Source: Escherichia coli (lineage in GTDB: Bacteria > Pseudomonadota > Gammaproteobacteria > Enterobacterales > Enterobacteriaceae). From it: a stretch of DNA of 64,000 nucleotides. The DNA lies in NCBI RefSeq assembly GCF_051903065.1, contig NZ_CP178438.1; one strand, given 5' to 3'. How positions within the stretch are numbered: position 1 is the stretch's first letter; each line of letters opens with the position of its first letter. The position numbers were made by a program, and so were the translations under genes. This document shows positions 1 through 16,066 of the stretch, in pieces. The notes under the pieces were generated by a model. That model searched no databases. It was not told the origin of the DNA and saw only the letters and a program-made list of their open reading frames with translations.

Positions 1-418
<418 letters not shown>

Positions 419-471
419 TAACATCCAGGCGGCGTCCGAACGCGCCGCCGCTCATCGTCTAAGGAGTACTT

Positions 472-696
472 ATGAGCGCGCTATTTCTGGCTATTCCGTT
501 AACCATTTTTGTGCTGTTTGTTTTACCGATCTGGTTATGGCTGCATTACAGCAATCGTTCTGGTCGCAGTGAATTGTCGCAAAGTGAGCAGCAGCGATTA
601 GCGCAACTGGCTGATGAAGCAAAACGGATGCGCGAACGTATTCAGGCGCTGGAATCTATTCTTGATGCAGAACATCCGAACTGGAGGGATCGCTAA
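472..696 (+). CDS. pspB: Phage shock protein B (74 aa)
   Basis: ORF-track protein MSALFLAIPLTIFVLFVLPIWLWLHYSNRS… matches PspB; stop overlaps pspC start. Confidence 0.9.
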   Translation: MSALFLAIPLTIFVLFVLPIWLWLHYSNRSGRSELSQSEQQRLAQLADEAKRMRERIQALESILDAEHPNWRDR

Positions 697-1055
697 TGGC
701 GGGCATTAATCTCAATAAAAAATTATGGCGTATTCCACAGCAGGGCATGGTCCGTGGCGTCTGCGCCGGGATTGCCAACTATTTTGATGTACCGGTAAAA
801 CTGGTGCGTATCCTGGTGGTGCTGTCGATTTTCTTCGGTCTGGCGCTGTTTACCCTGGTTGCTTACATCATTTTGTCATTTGCGCTTGATCCAATGCCGG
901 ACAACATGGCCTTTGGTGAGCAGCTACCTTCCAGCAGCGAATTGCTGGATGAAGTCGACCGTGAACTGGCGGCAAGTGAAACGCGTTTACGCGAGATGGA
1001 ACGTTATGTCACTTCCGATACTTTCACGTTACGTAGCCGTTTCCGTCAACTGTGA
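696..1055 (+). CDS. pspC: Phage shock protein C (119 aa)
   Basis: [39 protein letters not shown]… (PspC domain); operon context. Confidence 0.9.
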
Positions 1056-1063
1056 GGAAAGTT

Positions 1064-1285
1064 ATGAATACTCGCTGGCAACAGGCCGGGCAAAAGGTGA
1101 AGCCTGGTTTCAAATTAGCAGGCAAGCTGGTACTTCTTACCGCACTGCGCTATGGCCCGGCGGGTGTGGCGGGCTGGGCGATAAAATCAGTTGCTCGCCG
1201 ACCGCTGAAAATGTTGCTGGCTGTGGCGCTGGAACCGCTGTTAAGTCGGGCTGCTAATAAACTGGCACAGCGTTATAAAAGGTGA
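1064..1285 (+). CDS. pspD: Phage shock protein D (73 aa)
   Basis: ORF at 1052 contains internal Met giving [23 protein letters not shown]…; position after pspC. Confidence 0.8.
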
Positions 1286-1359
1286 GGAGAGTTTCGCAAA
1301 AATTGTTAAATCTCAGGCCTATAATGGATGGCAATTTTCATCCATAGAAGGACACTTAC

Positions 1360-1674
1360 ATGTTTAAAAAAGGCTTACTTGCTCTGGCACTGGTGTTTTC
1401 ACTGCCCGTTTTTGCCGCTGAACACTGGATCGATGTTCGTGTTCCAGAGCAGTATCAGCAAGAGCACGTTCAGGGGGCCATCAATATTCCCCTGAAGGAA
1501 GTGAAAGAGCGCATTGCCACCGTCGTTCCGGATAAAAACGACACCGTGAAAGTGTATTGCAATGCCGGACGCCAGTCAGGGCAGGCAAAAGAGATCCTTA
1601 GCGAGATGGGATATACCCACGTTGAGAACGCCGGTGGCCTGAAAGACATCGCAATGCCGAAGGTCAAAGGTTAA
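1360..1674 (+). CDS. pspE: Thiosulfate sulfurtransferase (rhodanese), periplasmic (104 aa)
   Basis: Signal peptide MFKKGLLALALVFSLPVFA plus rhodanese motif (VKVYCNAGRQSGQA). Confidence 0.9.
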   Translation: MFKKGLLALALVFSLPVFAAEHWIDVRVPEQYQQEHVQGAINIPLKEVKERIATVVPDKNDTVKVYCNAGRQSGQAKEILSEMGYTHVENAGGLKDIAMPKVKG

Positions 1675-1688
1675 AAGAATTCACCATG

Positions 1689-1714
1689 AGCGGCGCTTAT
1701 GCGCCGTTTTTTTC
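1689..1714 (+). terminator. Rho-independent terminator after pspE
   Basis: GC hairpin gcggcgcttatgcgccg followed by T7 run, immediately after the pspE stop. Confidence 0.6.
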
Positions 1715-1884
1715 TGTCACACCTTATTTACATCCCTATAGATTATTTGCGTCAGCTCACAAATACGCTTTTTCCCTGGTAAAAAATGATTTCCTGCGTG
1801 ACTAAAACCCTTGTGCTCAATTGACAGTTTATTTTCTGCGGAGTAGTCTCTCATTTCATGGGACCGCTACCACGGAAAGGCAAC

Positions 1885-3564
1885 ATGAAACAGAAAATTA
1901 CGGATTACCTGGACGAAATCTACGGTGGAACATTTACCGCAACTCATTTACAGAAACTTGTAACGCGTCTTGAGAGTGCGAAACGATTAATTACACAGCG
2001 ACGTAAAAAACACTGGGATGAAAGTGACGTCGTGTTAATTACCTATGCCGATCAATTTCACAGTAATGGTTTAAAACCACTACCCACATTTAATCAGTTT
2101 TACCATCAATGGCTGCAATGCATTTTTTCACATGTTCATTTATTACCTTTTTACCCATGGTCATCTGATGATGGATTTTCGGTAATTGATTATCATCAGG
2201 TCGCCAGTGAAGCGGGGGAGTGGCAGGATATTCAGCAGCTCGGTGAATGCAGTCATTTAATGTTTGATTTTGTCTGCAACCATATGTCGGCAAAAAGTGA
2301 ATGGTTTAAAAACTATTTGCAACAGCTTCCGGGTTTTGAAGATTTTTTTATTGCGGTTGATCCGCAAACCGATCTCAGCGCTGTCACCCGTCCGCGTGCA
2401 TTACCGCTATTAACGCCGTTTCAAATGGATGATAATTCCACGCGCCATTTATGGACCACCTTTAGCGACGATCAAATTGACCTGAATTACCGTAGCCCTG
2501 ACGTGTTGCTGGCGATGGTGGATGTTTTGCTTTGTTACCTGGAAAAGGGCGCAGAGTATGTCCGCCTGGATGCCGTTGGCTTTATGTGGAAAGAGCCGGG
2601 AACAAGCTGCATCCATCTGGAAAAAACACATCTGATTATCAAACTGTTACGGTCGATTATTGATAACGTCGCGCCAGGCACAGTGATCATTACCGAGACC
2701 AATGTTCCGCATAAAGACAACATTGCTTACTTTGGCAACGGCGATGATGAAGCCCATATGGTGTATCAGTTCTCGTTGCCGCCGCTGGTGCTGCATGCGG
2801 TGCAAAAACAGAACGTCGAGGCGCTGTGCCAGTGGGCGCAAAGTCTGAGCTTGCCCTCCGGTAAAACGACCTGGTTTAACTTCCTCGCCTCTCACGATGG
2901 CATCGGGCTGAACCCACTGCGGGGCTTGTTACCAGAAAGCGAAATATTAGCGCTGGTCGAGGCATTACAGCAGGAAGGTGCATTAGTAAACTGGAAAAAT
3001 AATCCCGACGGTACGCGCAGTCCCTATGAAATAAATGTCACCTATATGGATGCGTTAAGCCGCCGCGAGAGTAGCGATGAAGAACGTTGCGCCAGGTTTA
3101 TCCTTGCCCATGCGATTTTGTTAAGTTTCCCCGGTGTGCCAGCGATATATATTCAAAGTATTCTGGGCTCGCGTAATGATTACGCAGGTGTCGAAAAACT
3201 CGGATATAACCGTGCGATTAACCGTAAAAAATATCACAGTGAAGAGATAACCCGAGAACTGAACGATGAAGCTACATTAAGGCATGCGGTATATCATGAG
3301 TTGTCGCGTTTAATTACACTTCGTCGCAGCCATAACGAGTTTCATCCGGATAATAATTTTACCATCGATACGGTTAATTCATCCGTAATGCGTATTCAAA
3401 GAAGTAACGCAGAGGGTAATTGTCTGACCGGATTGTTTAATGTCAGTAAAAATATTCAGCATGTAAATATTACTGGCCTGCACGGTCGGGATCTGATTAG
3501 TGAAGTTGATATATTGGGTAATAAAATAACGCTGCGCCCCTGGCAGGTTATGTGGATTAAATAA
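1885..3564 (+). CDS. ycjM: Glycoside phosphorylase (sucrose/glucosylglycerate phosphorylase family, GH13_18)
   Basis: 559-aa protein from Met at 1885 (MKQKITDYLDEIYGG…); first gene of the ycjM-V cluster. Confidence 0.85.
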   Translation: MKQKITDYLDEIYGGTFTATHLQKLVTRLESAKRLITQRRKKHWDESDVVLITYADQFHSNGLKPLPTFNQFYHQWLQCIFSHVHLLPFYPWSSDDGFSVIDYHQVASEAGEWQDIQQLGECSHLMFDFVCNHMSAKSEWFKNYLQQLPGFEDFFIAVDPQTDLSAVTRPRALPLLTPFQMDDNSTRHLWTTFSDDQIDLNYRSPDVLLAMVDVLLCYLEKGAEYVRLDAVGFMWKEPGTSCIHLEKTHLIIKLLRSIIDNVAPGTVIITETNVPHKDNIAYFGNGDDEAHMVYQFSLPPLVLHAVQKQNVEALCQWAQSLSLPSGKTTWFNFLASHDGIGLNPLRGLLPESEILALVEALQQEGALVNWKNNPDGTRSPYEINVTYMDALSRRESSDEERCARFILAHAILLSFPGVPAIYIQSILGSRNDYAGVEKLGYNRAINRKKYHSEEITRELNDEATLRHAVYHELSRLITLRRSHNEFHPDNNFTIDTVNSSVMRIQRSNAEGNCLTGLFNVSKNIQHVNITGLHGRDLISEVDILGNKITLRPWQVMWIK

Positions 3565-3577
3565 AAAGGAACATCTC

Positions 3578-4870
3578 ATGATTAAATCAAAAATCGTGCT
3601 GTTATCAGCACTGGTTTCCTGCGCCCTGATTTCAGGCTGTAAAGAAGAAAATAAAACCCATGTATCCATCGAATTTATGCATTCTTCGGTGGAGCAGGAG
3701 CGTCAGGCAGTTATCAGCAAATTGATTGCCCGTTTTGAAAAAGAAAACCCAGGTATCACCGTTAAACAAGTGCCCGTGGAAGAAGACGCTTATAACACCA
3801 AAGTCATCACCCTTTCACGTAGCGGCTCGCTGCCGGAAGTGATCGAAACCAGCCATGACTACGCCAAAGTTATGGATAAAGAGCAGCTTATCGATCGCAA
3901 AGCGGTTGCCACGGTCATCAGCAACGTTGGTGAAGACGCGTTTTACGATGGCGTACTGCGTATTGTGCGTACCGAAGATGGGAGTGCCTAGACCGGTGTT
4001 CCCGTCAGCGCCTGGATTGGCGGCATCTGGTATCGCAAAGATGTGCTGGCAAAAGCCGGGCTGGAGGAGCCGAAAAACTGGCAACAGCTGCTGGACGTTG
4101 CACAGAAACTGAATGACCCGGCGAATAAAAAATACGGTATTGCGCTGCCTACGGCAGAAAGCGTGCTGACGGAACAATCCTTCTCCCAGTTTGCGTTATC
4201 CAACCAGGCCAATGTCTTTAACTCTGCAGGCAAAATCACCCTTGATACACCAGAGATGATGCAAGCACTGACCTATTACCGCGACCTTGCCACCAACACC
4301 ATGCCGGGTTCTAACGATATCATGGAAGTGAAAGACGCCTTTATGAACGGCACCGCGCCGATGGCGATTTACTCCACCTATATCCTTCCGGCTGTGATTA
4401 AAGAAGGCGATCCGAAAAACGTCGGTTTCGTCGTGCCAACGGAGAAAAACTCTGCGGTCTACGGCATGTTGACCTCGCTGACCATTACCGCCGGGCAAAA
4501 GACCGAAGAAACGGAAGCAGCAGAAAAATTCGTCACCTTTATGGAGCAGGCGGACAACATTGCCGACTGGGTGATGATGTCGCCAGGCGCGGCACTGCCG
4601 GTGAACAAAGCGGTTGTCACTACCGCCACCTGGAAAGACAACGACGTGATCAAGGCGCTGGGTGAACTGCCGAATCAGTTAATTGGTGAACTGCCAAATA
4701 TTCAGGTTTTTGGCGCAGTAGGGGATAAAAACTTTACCCGCATGGGTGATGTGACGGGTTCTGGCGTGGTGAGTTCAATGGTGCATAACGTCACCGTGGG
4801 TAAAGCCGATCTCTCTACTACGCTGCAAGCGAGCCAGAAAAAACTGGATGAACTGATCGAACAGCACTAA
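3578..4870 (+). pseudogene. ycjN: Sugar ABC transporter periplasmic binding protein, interrupted by an in-frame TAG stop at 3989-3991
   Basis: ORFs 3578..3991 and 4043..4870 are in the same frame; translation across the stop is continuous (…RIVRTEDGSA*TGVPVSAWIGGIWYRKDVLAKAG…). N-terminus has a lipoprotein signal (LISGC). Confidence 0.8.
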
Positions 4871-4890
4871 ACCCAGGACAGGAATCCGCA

Positions 4891-5772
4891 ATGAACAGGC
4901 TTTTTTCAGGTCGTTCCGATATGCCCTTTGCGCTGCTGCTTCTCGCGCCCAGCTTATTACTGCTGGGCGGTCTGGTGGCGTGGCCGATGGTGTCGAATAT
5001 CGAAATCAGTTTTTTACGTCTGCCGCTCAATCCCAACATCGAGTCAACGTTTGTTGGGGTGAGTAACTATGTACGCATTCTCTCCGATCCCGGCTTCTGG
5101 CACTCGCTGTGGATGACGGTCTGGTATACGGCGCTGGTGGTGGCGGGCAGCACCGTGCTCGGGCTGGCGGTGGCGATGTTTTTCAACCGCGAGTTCCGCC
5201 TGCGCAAAACCGCGCGTTCGCTGGTGATCCTCTCCTACGTAACGCCGTCTATTTCGCTGGTGTTTGCCTGGAAATACATGTTCAACAACGGCTACGGCAT
5301 TGTGAACTACCTCGGCGTCGATCTTCTGCATCTCTATGAGCAGGCACCGCTGTGGTTCGATAATCCGAGCAGTAGCTTTGTGCTGGTGGTGCTGTTCGCC
5401 ATCTGGCGCTACTTCCCGTATGCCTTTATCTCGTTTCTGGCGATTTTGCAGACCATCGACAAATCGCTGTACGAAGCGGCAGAGATGGATGGCGCTAATG
5501 CCTGGCAACGGTTTCGCATCGTCACGCTGCCCGCAATTATGCCGGTCCTGGCGACGGTGGTGACCCTGCGCACCATCTGGATGTTCTACATGTTCGCTGA
5601 CGTTTATCTGCTGACGACGAAGGTCGATATTCTCGGCGTTTATCTCTACAAAACCGCCTTTGCCTTTAATGACTTAGGGAAAGCGGCGGCGATCTCGGTG
5701 GTGCTCTTCATCATTATTTTCGCTGTCATTCTGCTGACCAGAAAACGGGTGAACCTCAATGGCAACAAATAA
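4891..5772 (+). CDS. ycjO: Sugar ABC transporter permease (293 aa)
   Basis: Multi-TM protein with the MalF/G-like EAA motif region; operon context. Confidence 0.85.
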   Translation: MNRLFSGRSDMPFALLLLAPSLLLLGGLVAWPMVSNIEISFLRLPLNPNIESTFVGVSNYVRILSDPGFWHSLWMTVWYTALVVAGSTVLGLAVAMFFNREFRLRKTARSLVILSYVTPSISLVFAWKYMFNNGYGIVNYLGVDLLHLYEQAPLWFDNPSSSFVLVVLFAIWRYFPYAFISFLAILQTIDKSLYEAAEMDGANAWQRFRIVTLPAIMPVLATVVTLRTIWMFYMFADVYLLTTKVDILGVYLYKTAFAFNDLGKAAAISVVLFIIIFAVILLTRKRVNLNGNK

Positions 5773-6601
5773 ACGCACACTCAGTCGCATCGGTTTTTAC
5801 TGCGGGCTGGCGCTGTTTCTCATCATCACGCTGTTTCCGTTTTTTGTGATGCTGATGACCTCGTTCAAGAGCGCAAAAGAGGCGATCTCGCTGCATCCTA
5901 CGCTGCTGCCACAGCAGTGGACGCTGGAGCATTACGTCGACATTTTTAACCCGATGATTTTCCCGTTTGTCGACTACTTCCGTAACAGCATGGTGGTGTC
6001 GGTGGTTTCATCCGTGGTGGTGGTATTTCTCGGTATTCTCGGGGCTTACGCGCTTTCTCGCCTGCGCTTTAAAGGTCGGATGACCATCAACGCCAGCTTT
6101 TACACGGTGTACATGTTCTCCGGCATTTTGCTGGTGGTGCCGCTGTTCAAAATTATCACCGCACTTGGCATTTACGACACCGAGATGGCGCTGATCATTA
6201 CCATGGTGACGCAAACTCTGCCCACCGCCGTGTTTATGCTGAAAAGTTACTTCGACACCATCCCTGATGAGATCGAAGAAGCGGCGATGATGGATGGCCT
6301 CAACCGTCTGCAAATCATCTTCCGTATCACCGTGCCCCTGGCGATGTCCGGGCTGATATCGGTGTTCGTCTACTGCTTTATGGTGGCGTGGAACGACTAT
6401 CTGTTTGCGTCGATTTTCCTCTCCAGCGCCAGCAATTTCACCTTACCGGTGGGCCTGAACGCGCTGTTCAGTACGCCTGATTACATCTGGGGACGGATGA
6501 TGGCGGCCTCGCTGGTGACCGCATTGCCGGTGGTGATTATGTATGCGCTTTCGGAACGTTTTATTAAGAGTGGTTTGACCGCCGGTGGCGTGAAGGGCTA
6601 A
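5759..6601 (+). CDS. ycjP: Sugar ABC transporter permease (280 aa)
   Basis: Multi-TM permease with EAAMMDG motif; start overlaps ycjO stop. Confidence 0.85.
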   Translation: MATNKRTLSRIGFYCGLALFLIITLFPFFVMLMTSFKSAKEAISLHPTLLPQQWTLEHYVDIFNPMIFPFVDYFRNSMVVSVVSSVVVVFLGILGAYALSRLRFKGRMTINASFYTVYMFSGILLVVPLFKIITALGIYDTEMALIITMVTQTLPTAVFMLKSYFDTIPDEIEEAAMMDGLNRLQIIFRITVPLAMSGLISVFVYCFMVAWNDYLFASIFLSSASNFTLPVGLNALFSTPDYIWGRMMAASLVTALPVVIMYALSERFIKSGLTAGGVKG

Positions 6602-12475: not shown

Positions 12476-12488
12476 CAAAGGAATCAAC

Positions 12489-13571
12489 ATGGCTCAGCTT
12501 TCGTTACAACATATTCAAAAAATCTACGATAACCAGGTGCATGTGGTGAAGGACTTCAACCTGGAAATTGCCGATAAAGAGTTCATCGTATTTGTCGGCC
12601 CGTCGGGCTGCGGTAAATCGACCACCCTGCGCATGATTGCCGGGCTTGAGGAGATCAGCGGCGGCGATCTGTTGATCGACGGCAAACGAATGAATGACGT
12701 TCCAGCCAAAGCACGCAATATCGCGATGGTGTTCCAGAACTACGCGTTGTATCCGCATATGACGGTTTACGACAACATGGCGTTTGGCCTGAAGATGCAA
12801 AAAATCGCCAAAGAGGTGATTGATGAGCGGGTGAACTGGGCGGCGCAAATTCTCGGCCTGCGTGAGTACCTGAAACGCAAGCCGGGCGCGCTTTCCGGCG
12901 GGCAACGTCAGCGAGTGGCGCTCGGGCGGGCGATTGTACGCGAAGCGGGCGTGTTTTTAATGGATGAACCGCTCTCTAACCTTGATGCCAAGCTGCGCGT
13001 GCAAATGCGCGCAGAGATCAGCAAGCTGCATCAGAAACTGAACACCACCATGATCTACGTGACCCACGATCAGACCGAAGCGATGACCATGGCGACGCGG
13101 ATTGTGATTATGAAAGACGGGATTGTTCAGCAAGTGGGTGCGCCGAAAACCGTTTATAACCAACCCGCGAATATGTTTGTTGCCGGATTTATTGGATCAC
13201 CAGCGATGAATTTTATTCGCGGCACGATCGATGGCGATAAATTCGTTACGGAAACGCTTAAATTAACCATTCCCGAAGAGAAATTAGCGGTTCTGAAAAC
13301 ACAGGAAAGTTTGCATAAGCCCATCGTGATGGGAATGCGCCCGGAAGATATTCATCCGGACGCGCAAGAGGAAAATAATATTTCCGCCAAAATTAGCGTG
13401 GCAGAATTAACCGGTGCGGAATTTATGCTCTACACCACGGTTGGGGGGCACGAGTTAGTGGTCCGTGCTGGTGCGTTAAATGATTATCATGCAGGAGAAA
13501 ATATCACTATTCATTTTGATATGACTAAATGTCATTTCTTTGATGCAGAAACGGAAATAGCAATTCGCTAA
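12489..13571 (+). CDS. ycjV: ABC transporter ATP-binding protein, MalK-like (360 aa), apparently intact
   Basis: Walker A GPSGCGKST, signature LSGGQRQRV, Walker B VFLMDEP, plus a MalK-like C-terminal domain. Confidence 0.85.
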   Translation: MAQLSLQHIQKIYDNQVHVVKDFNLEIADKEFIVFVGPSGCGKSTTLRMIAGLEEISGGDLLIDGKRMNDVPAKARNIAMVFQNYALYPHMTVYDNMAFGLKMQKIAKEVIDERVNWAAQILGLREYLKRKPGALSGGQRQRVALGRAIVREAGVFLMDEPLSNLDAKLRVQMRAEISKLHQKLNTTMIYVTHDQTEAMTMATRIVIMKDGIVQQVGAPKTVYNQPANMFVAGFIGSPAMNFIRGTIDGDKFVTETLKLTIPEEKLAVLKTQESLHKPIVMGMRPEDIHPDAQEENNISAKISVAELTGAEFMLYTTVGGHELVVRAGALNDYHAGENITIHFDMTKCHFFDAETEIAIR

Positions 13572-13615
13572 ATACAGGGGGAAGGCATTCCCCCAGGATA
13601 ATACAAGGAACAATA

Positions 13616-14521
13616 ATGAAAAAGTTATTACCCTGTACCGCACTGGTGATGTGTGCGGGAATGGCCTGCGCACAGGCCGAGGAAAAGAACGACTGGCACT
13701 TTAATATCGGCGCGATGTACGAAATAGAAAACGTCGAGGGTTATGGCGAAGATATGGATGGGCTGGCGGAGCCTTCTGTCTATTTTAATGCCGCCAACGG
13801 GCCGTGGAGAATTTCTCTGGCCTATTATCAGGAAGGGCCGGTAGATTATAGCGCGGGTAAACGTGGAACGTGGTTTGATCGCCCGGAGCTGGAGGTGCAT
13901 TATCAGTTCCTCGAAAGCGATGATTTCAGTTTCGGTCTGACCGGCGGTTTCCGTAATTATGGTTATCACTACGTTGATGAACCGGGTAAAGACACGGCGA
14001 ATATGCAGCGCTGGAAAATCGCGCCAGACTGGGATGTGAAACTGACTGACGATCTACGTTTCAACGGTTGGTTGTCGATGTATAAATTTGCCAACGATTT
14101 GAACACGACCGGTTACGCTGATACCCGTGTCGAAACGGAAACAGGTCTGCAATATACCTTCAACGAAACGGTTGCTTTGCGAGTGAACTATTATCTCGAG
14201 CGCGGCTTCAATATGGACGACAGCCGCAATAACGGTGAGTTTTCCACGCAAGAAATTCGCGCCTATTTGCCGCTGACGCTCGGCAACCACTCGGTGACGC
14301 CGTATACGCGCATTGGGCTGGATCGCTGGAGTAACTGGGACTGGCAGGATGATATTGAACGTGAAGGCCATGATTTTAACCGTGTTGGTTTATTTTACGG
14401 TTATGATTTCCAGAATGGTCTTTCCATTTCGCTGGAATACGCGTTTGAGTGGCAGGATCACGACGAAGGCGACAGCGATAAATTCCATTATGCAGGTGTC
14501 GGCGTAAATTACTCGTTCTGA
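13616..14521 (+). CDS. ompG: Outer membrane porin OmpG (301 aa)
   Basis: Signal peptide MKKLLPCTALVMCAGMACA, beta-barrel sequence, C-terminal …VNYSF. Confidence 0.9.
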   Translation: MKKLLPCTALVMCAGMACAQAEEKNDWHFNIGAMYEIENVEGYGEDMDGLAEPSVYFNAANGPWRISLAYYQEGPVDYSAGKRGTWFDRPELEVHYQFLESDDFSFGLTGGFRNYGYHYVDEPGKDTANMQRWKIAPDWDVKLTDDLRFNGWLSMYKFANDLNTTGYADTRVETETGLQYTFNETVALRVNYYLERGFNMDDSRNNGEFSTQEIRAYLPLTLGNHSVTPYTRIGLDRWSNWDWQDDIEREGHDFNRVGLFYGYDFQNGLSISLEYAFEWQDHDEGDSDKFHYAGVGVNYSF

Positions 14522-14529
14522 TAATGGGC

Positions 14530-14594
14530 TAAATTGCCGGATGCGGCGCGAGTACTTTATCCGATCTATAAATGTAGGCCGGATAAGATGCGCC
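14530..14594. repeat. REP/BIME palindromic units downstream of ompG; the second unit is split by the IS at 14595 and resumes at 16028
   Basis: gccggatgcggcg… and gtaggccggataagatgcgcc | IS | gccagcatcgcatccggc; removing the IS and one GCC copy gives a palindrome gccggataagatgcgccagcatcgcatccggc. Confidence 0.75.
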
Positions 14595-15121
14595 TGAACT
14601 GCACCCCAAATGTTGGACATAATCTGACATCTGAAGGTGCAGTTTATGAAACATTCATTTGAAGTAAAACTTGCCGCTGTAAATCATTACCTGGCCGGTC
14701 ATGCAGGCATCATTTCTACGGCAAAACTCTTTCAACTTTCTCACACCAGCCTCTCACACTGGATTAATCTTTTTCTTCTTCACGGTCCTCAGGCACTGGA
14801 TTGCAGACACAAGCGTAGCTATTCTCCTGAAGATAAACTTTGCGTGGTTCTTTATGCTCTCGGGCATTCTGAGTCTCTACCCCGGGTAGCTGCCCGGTTT
14901 AACATTCCCAGCCACAACATGGTTAAAAACTGGATAAAAGGCTACCGCAAATCTGGTAATGAGGCCTTTATCAGGCGCAGGAAGGAGAAAAGCATGACCC
15001 GTTCTGATGATACCCATGAAAACGAGGCAAACATGACGCCGGAAGAGATGAAGAATGAGCTGCGTTATCTTCGCGCAGAAAATGCATATCTGAAAGCCAT
15101 GCAGGAGCATCTCCTGGAAAA

Positions 15122-16020
<899 letters not shown>

Positions 16021-16066
16021 TGTTCAGCCAGCATCGCATCCGGCATTCAGGCAAGGTCGCTGGTAT

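Follow-up and report, generated by a model that had tools for sequence, protein, structure and literature searches.

An intact ycjV transporter ATPase gene in an Escherichia coli genome, its frameshifted counterpart in K-12 and the scattered lesions of the ycj cluster

The ycjV gene and its product

The window, i.e. the whole stretch of 64,000 nucleotides of Escherichia coli DNA that was analysed (contig NZ_CP178438.1, RefSeq assembly GCF_051903065.1), holds between ycjU/pgmB and ompG an open reading frame that runs on the plus strand from an ATG at position 12489 to a TAA ending at 13571 and encodes 360 aa, and the RefSeq annotation of the identical genome gives ycjV the same coordinates. By this position and its near-identity to the K-12 locus the gene is the E. 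coli orthologue of ycjV. The distance between the stop codon of ycjU/pgmB and the ycjV start is 13 nt. The features of the gene are as follows:

12478..12482, plus strand: Shine-Dalgarno sequence AAGGA, 6 nt 5' of the ycjV ATG (direct reading of the sequence)
12489..13571, plus strand: ycjV, coding sequence of an intact ABC transporter ATP-binding subunit of 360 aa (RefSeq WP_047624255.1)
12597..12620, plus strand: Walker A motif GPSGCGKS, residues 37-44 (motif scan)
12891..12905, plus strand: ABC signature LSGGQ, residues 135-139 (motif scan)
12951..12968, plus strand: Walker B motif VFLMDE, residues 155-160 (motif scan)
13194..13541, plus strand: C-terminal regulatory-type domain, OB_MalK plus TOBE_2 (Pfam)
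13443..13448, plus strand: G6 homopolymer, codons GGG GGG for Gly319-Gly320, the site of the K-12 frameshift (pairwise alignment and run coordinates)

The motif scan furthermore located the Q-loop region at residues 82-87 and, both after Walker B, the D-loop SNLD (163-166) and the H-loop THD (192-194), so that the ABC motifs are complete and in order, with the catalytic Glu present in Walker B. At the level of domains, Pfam recognizes ABC_tran (PF00005) at residues 21-162 (E=1e-31, 110.6 bits against a gathering cut-off of 25), OB_MalK (PF17912) at residues 236-288 (52 bits, cut-off 27) and TOBE_2 (PF08402) at residues 282-351 (37 bits, cut-off 21). The match in motifs and domains is far beyond chance. 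The preliminary description of this DNA, made from the letters alone, had seen here a complete 360-aa MalK-like ATPase with Walker A, signature and Walker B motifs and a C-terminal domain, and the open reading frame, the motif scan and Pfam agree on precisely that.

With respect to the closest relatives, YcjV scores 484 bits against the NCBIfam model of the UgpC subfamily (NF008653), i.e. above the cut-off of 432, and 429 bits against the MalK equivalog model (NF008233), i.e. below the cut-off of 568, which implies that YcjV is a paralogue and not MalK itself. It shares the domain order and all ABC motifs with the CUT1 proteins MalK and UgpC of E. coli but resides in a different operon and has a different presumed substrate. 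The top match in the PDB is MsmX of B. subtilis (6yir; full length, E=3e-148), and the identity between YcjV and MsmX was reported to be 64% (PMC7658222). Both proteins have the architecture of a nucleotide-binding domain followed by C-terminal OB/TOBE domains, yet msmX is an orphan gene whose product energizes several importers, while ycjV is part of an operon. The purified E. coli YcjV (WP_000057985.1) was reported to have ATPase activity; it did not rescue a B. subtilis msmX null mutant, and the conserved charged residues D77, R104, E110 and K154, proposed as the signature of multitask ATPases, are missing from it (PMC7658222).

We propose that YcjV acts as the nucleotide-binding subunit of a type I (CUT1-like) sugar ABC importer composed of YcjN, YcjO, YcjP and YcjV, and that this importer, with its presumed substrate, belongs to the ycjM-ompG cluster for the catabolism of kojibiose, glucosylglycerate and glucosides/gulosides. 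By analogy to the MalK/MsmX family, a YcjV homodimer would dock on the permeases YcjO and YcjP, two ATP molecules would be sandwiched between the Walker A motif of one monomer and the LSGGQ motif of the other, and hydrolysis would power the import of a substrate handed over by the lipoprotein YcjN. The dimer would be stabilized by its C-terminal OB/TOBE domains, which may also be the target of regulatory signals. YcjN has been described as the lipoprotein binding protein of the YcjV importer (bioRxiv 10.1101/2024.09.05.611266), and in one paper maltose and ethidium were put forward as substrates of YcjNOPV (PMC13053599).

The G-run of ycjV in K-12 and in other genomes

In MG1655 (NC_000913.3) the interval between ycjU/pgmB and ompG, uninterrupted in the window, contains two pseudogenes, ycjV (b1318, 1380821-1381789) and ymjB (b4524, 1381789-1381902), which bears out the statement in the preliminary description that the K-12 gene is annotated as interrupted. 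The preliminary description had also named a pairwise alignment with K-12 as the check to be made; when the window ORF was aligned globally with the 1082-nt K-12 stretch, we found 13 substitutions in 1083 nt, two of them non-synonymous (A232S and M283I), and one 1-bp gap. The gap is a single G that is missing from K-12 at codons 319-320 (five G against six in the window), and the K-12 gene is not full length: owing to the G5 run its frame closes after residue 322, and the remaining part of the protein is encoded without change in a second frame. Only one substitution was found in the 126 nt 3' of the deletion. This frameshift is absent from the window, where the frame remains open to codon 360.

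According to the scenario we propose, the loss of one G from the G6 run would have turned the K-12 gene into a 322-aa product and the leftover ORF ymjB. The product ends about 40 residues short and thereby misses roughly half of the TOBE_2 match, a truncation that suggests a loss of function. When the frame is restored, the K-12 protein corresponds to the common allele WP_000057985.1, which is found for example in ATCC 8739, where it has 360 aa and the same operon position as in the window; the window protein is identical to it at 358 of the 360 residues, the two exceptions being the conservative differences A232S and M283I. The 'pseudogene ycjV locus' is used by metabolic engineers as an integration site (PMC10380740). 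On ymjB the literature yielded nothing informative.

The frequency of both states was determined in a set of 5426 complete E. coli genomes, 5002 of which were matched by a 1301-nt ycjV region, and the integrity of the gene was surveyed by means of allele-specific short queries combined with identity bands. The window 61-mer centred on the G6 run occurs exactly in 4416 of the 4995 locus-bearing complete genomes and the corresponding K-12 60-mer, with five G, in 370 genomes; a 41-nt K-12 query, which is unable to seed on genomes with the G6 run, recovered 371 genomes with five G. The intact ycjV allele is present in about 93% of the locus-bearing genomes and, according to the annotation, ycjV is intact in all ten diverse genomes that were sampled from the spread of matches. 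An intact ycjV is therefore the default in E. coli and not a notable trait of the window strain.

The carriers of the five-G run are mostly K-12 stocks (MG1655, W3110, BW2952, C600, MC4100, XL1-Blue, J53, NCM3722 and others). They include WG1 (CP099590), an early K-12 stock with a hybrid assembly (PMC9997739), which implies that the slip had occurred before the laboratory lineages diverged. The first five carriers sampled had given the impression that the lesion is unique to K-12, which was ruled out by the 41-nt query and a haplotype alignment. Carriers outside K-12 comprise 95-3192 (5.39 Mb), the bovine OkiPb clone (5.30 Mb, at least three assemblies), EC6622 and PJ-T13, in all of which ycjV is annotated as 'frameshifted'; extrapolation from five clear non-K-12 cases among 60 sampled of the 371 carriers puts their number at approximately 30. 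In a multi-strain alignment the five-G run appears on at least four SNP backgrounds, namely those of K-12/PJ-T13, OkiPb, EC6622 and 95-3192, and as a consequence the G6 run should be seen as a recurrent slippage site and not as the seat of a K-12-specific lesion. Some of the five-G calls outside K-12 could be homopolymer assembly errors, but the OkiPb clone shows the short run in at least three assemblies.

The allele of PJ-T13 (NZ_CP087110.1, a 4.94-Mb genome, locus 265-1346) is identical to that of K-12, the G5 run included. PJ-T13 may be a natural relative with which K-12 has the lesion in common, or else recombination transferred the allele.

Two readings place the difference between the window and K-12 in the homopolymer itself. 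That it is an artefact of sequencing or assembly has some background in the fact that homopolymers are error-prone in long-read assemblies, and strain 1-62 and some others may hold such errors; nevertheless the genome counts effectively refute it, as the five-G run is found in 371 genomes that include the Sanger-era sequences of MG1655, W3110 and BW2952 and the hybrid-assembled WG1, and the exact 61-mer with six G is common to 4416 genomes, among them two assemblies that match the first 25 kb of the window without a difference. The other reading, in which the tract is a phase-variable contingency switch that turns the importer reversibly on and off, could appeal to the recurrence of this 1-bp loss in the G-run on at least four haplotypes, shared in the bovine clone by three assemblies. 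We consider such a switch extremely unlikely: functional phase-variable tracts usually measure 8 nt or more, so that six G are short for this purpose, the five-G run is present in only an estimated 30 or so non-K-12 genomes, and it has been kept in every K-12 stock listed among the 371 carriers.

With high confidence, then, we take the sequence at 12489-13571 of the window to be an ordinary wild-type ycjV allele of E. coli and the K-12 pseudogene to be the derived state. The intact allele, the K-12 frameshift and the 'internal stop' in ycjN discussed below are all already present in the public annotation (RefSeq). What is added here is modest and consists of the exact lesion, its frequency in the population, the finding that it recurs on several backgrounds and the broader set of lesions scattered over the cluster; all this carries little weight for biology at large. 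In practice, K-12 with its truncated ATPase is ill suited as a model of the Ycj importer, and transport studies of ycjN should either restore ycjV in the K-12 background or turn to a wild strain.

Lesions and selection across the ycj cluster

The genes from ycjM to ompG in the window are all colinear with their K-12 counterparts and of equal length, and their sole defect is a stop codon in ycjN. The features that matter here are:

3578..4870, plus strand: ycjN, periplasmic/lipoprotein binding protein of the YcjV transporter, here a pseudogene with a stop at codon 138 (RefSeq 'internal stop')
3989..3991, plus strand: TAG amber codon in place of TGG for Trp138 of ycjN, by a G-to-A change at 3990 (alignment with K-12 and ECNB21-M121)
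4891..5772, plus strand: ycjO, permease subunit, intact (colinear with K-12 and of equal length; RefSeq)
5759..6601, plus strand: ycjP, permease subunit, intact (K-12 comparison; RefSeq)
13616..14521, plus strand: ompG, outer-membrane porin and last gene of the cluster, intact (ORF list, K-12 comparison, RefSeq)

Over its first 25 kb the window shows 100% identity to 23CRST027 and 23CRST031, two human faecal isolates from Ecuador, and these are the only two of the 5426 genomes with an exact match to the W138* allele of ycjN; in both, RefSeq reports the 'internal stop' in ycjN next to an intact ycjV. The nearly identical strain ECNB21-M121 retains TGG at codon 138, as does K-12. The W138* change is a private and very recent mutation of this clone, in which the importer is probably non-functional despite a whole ATPase, i.e. 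for another reason than in K-12. More generally, individual wild strains, such as this clone and all O157:H7 genomes that were sampled, can be importer-null for reasons other than a broken ycjV.

Lesions are widespread in the cluster. In the case of ycjV, besides the slips in the G-run, we encountered an IS1 composite insertion (EC96), an ISKpn26 insertion (EC102) and a 2-bp deletion (strain 1-62). In FEX669 (NZ_CP065152.1, O150:H6, locus 2056-6050) a deletion that extends from the 3' end of ycjT to a point upstream of ompG has removed ycjU and ycjV and left ompG in place, and ycjR has an internal stop, which makes this strain an example of multi-hit decay. In the case of ycjN, an exact Q210* allele (CAG to TAG) was found in 267 genomes and appears to be fixed in serotype O157:H7, and in an O121 strain one nucleotide is missing from an A-run, which shifts the frame. 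The O157:H7 strain M1300706001A (locus 885-3869) combines Q210* with a second lesion, a frameshift by a deletion in a G-run of ycjM. The latter gene is annotated as frameshifted in ATCC 8739 as well (a 1-bp insertion), and in STEC388 and ET729 it has a 2-bp (CA) deletion at alignment columns 742-743 on two different haplotypes; this deletion occurs in only two of the 5426 genomes, both within a hand-picked sample of ten, and could be an assembly artefact or the result of short-patch recombination. Finally, 2012C-4227 has a stop in ycjT.

At least one flagged pseudogene was present in the cluster in six of ten sampled genomes, a figure to which assembly errors may have contributed some of the 'frameshifted' flags. 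The view that the cluster is essentially always intact outside K-12, to which the dN/dS values and allele counts had led, was softened by this sample. The whole cluster from ycjM to ycjW is absent, with pspE and ycjX separated only by a 118-nt spacer, from 373 of the 5426 genomes (6.9%), including 042 and PCN033. This absence looks lineage-associated, the lineages concerned being presumably those of phylogroup D. An example of this arrangement without ycjM-ycjW is NZ_CP133871.1 (2176-2293).

The preliminary description had suggested that ycjV and ycjN decay independently in different lineages, and this proved correct: the slip in K-12 ycjV stands against the W138* change of ycjN in the window, and there are further lesions elsewhere. 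It had gone on to read this as a sign of relaxed selection on the transporter. If YcjNOPV were generally under relaxed selection, the intact ycjV in the window and the broken one in K-12 would be two snapshots of neutral decay, and much of the above could be listed in its favour: the ycjN lesions are independent (W138*, Q210* in 267 O157:H7 genomes and the O121 frameshift), ycjV has been hit by the five-G slip on at least four backgrounds, by IS1, by ISKpn26, by the 2-bp deletion and by the deletion from ycjT' to ompG, six of ten sampled genomes have a cluster pseudogene and 373 genomes lack the cluster. However, between the window lineage and K-12 the dN/dS values amount to 0.031 for ycjN, 0.015 for ycjO, 0.033 for ycjP and 0.05 for ycjV, and to 0-0.12 for the enzymes of the cluster and ompG, whereas long-term neutrality would drive the ratio to about 1; such low values imply strong long-term purifying selection on the transporter genes. 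Furthermore, ycjV is intact in some 93% of the locus-bearing genomes, W138* is confined to two of the 5426 genomes, the lesions are all tip-level events of a single clone, a serotype or a lab strain, part of the six-in-ten figure may be assembly error, and the enzyme genes ycjM, ycjT and ycjR have been struck too, which implies that the decay is not specific to the transporter. The many independent lesions hence stand as described, but relaxed selection as their explanation is rather unlikely. The pattern fits the dispensability of the whole catabolic cluster and not a sustained relaxation on the transporter, and the best reading is that the losses are recent and lineage-specific, in a cluster that served E. 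coli for most of its history and is readily lost in some lineages. Together, the recurrent slip in the G6 run and the mosaic of lesions illustrate on a small scale how a catabolic island that is otherwise under strong purifying selection is lost in particular lineages.

Two other readings attribute the pattern to selection of a particular kind. YcjV could be a shared 'multitask' ATPase that energizes other sugar importers and is hence selected even where ycjN is dead; its nearest solved relative, MsmX, is such an ATPase, and O157:H7, O121 and the window clone have kept ycjV intact in spite of a broken ycjN. We hold this to be very unlikely, as ycjV sits inside its own operon, YcjV failed to replace MsmX in B. 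subtilis and misses the signature residues (PMC7658222), and K-12 has to do without a full-length copy, where a literature search found no report of a resulting defect in sugar transport; moreover ycjO and ycjP are equally intact, and a lack of time for decay explains the pattern just as well. It is conceivable, if on balance clearly improbable, that the repeated parallel inactivation was driven by selection for loss, e.g. by a cost of the large-pore OmpG or of the importer in some hosts. The events that could be marshalled for such selection are the G6 slips in ycjV on at least four backgrounds, the independent hits in ycjN, the lesions in ycjM, ycjT and ycjR and the absence of the cluster from about 7% of the genomes. 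If it were true, the low dN/dS would reflect a strong utility in other niches, i.e. antagonistic pleiotropy and not neutral decay.

Sequence features downstream of ycjV

The spacer that separates ycjV from ompG contains a hairpin (13577-13594) with a GC-rich stem of 7 bp (GGGGGAA-GGCA-TTCCCCC); no T-run follows, and it is therefore not a canonical intrinsic terminator. Further downstream, in the interval where the 3' ends of ompG and ycjW face each other, a 1435-bp element of the IS3 family is located at 14592-16026 (in RefSeq an IS1397 family transposase with programmed frameshift). It splits a REP/BIME-like palindrome into the parts GCCGGATAAGATGCGC and CAGCATCGCATCCGGC; in K-12 the palindrome is uninterrupted. 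IS1397 is known to target BIMEs. The same intergenic element is found in ECNB21-M121.
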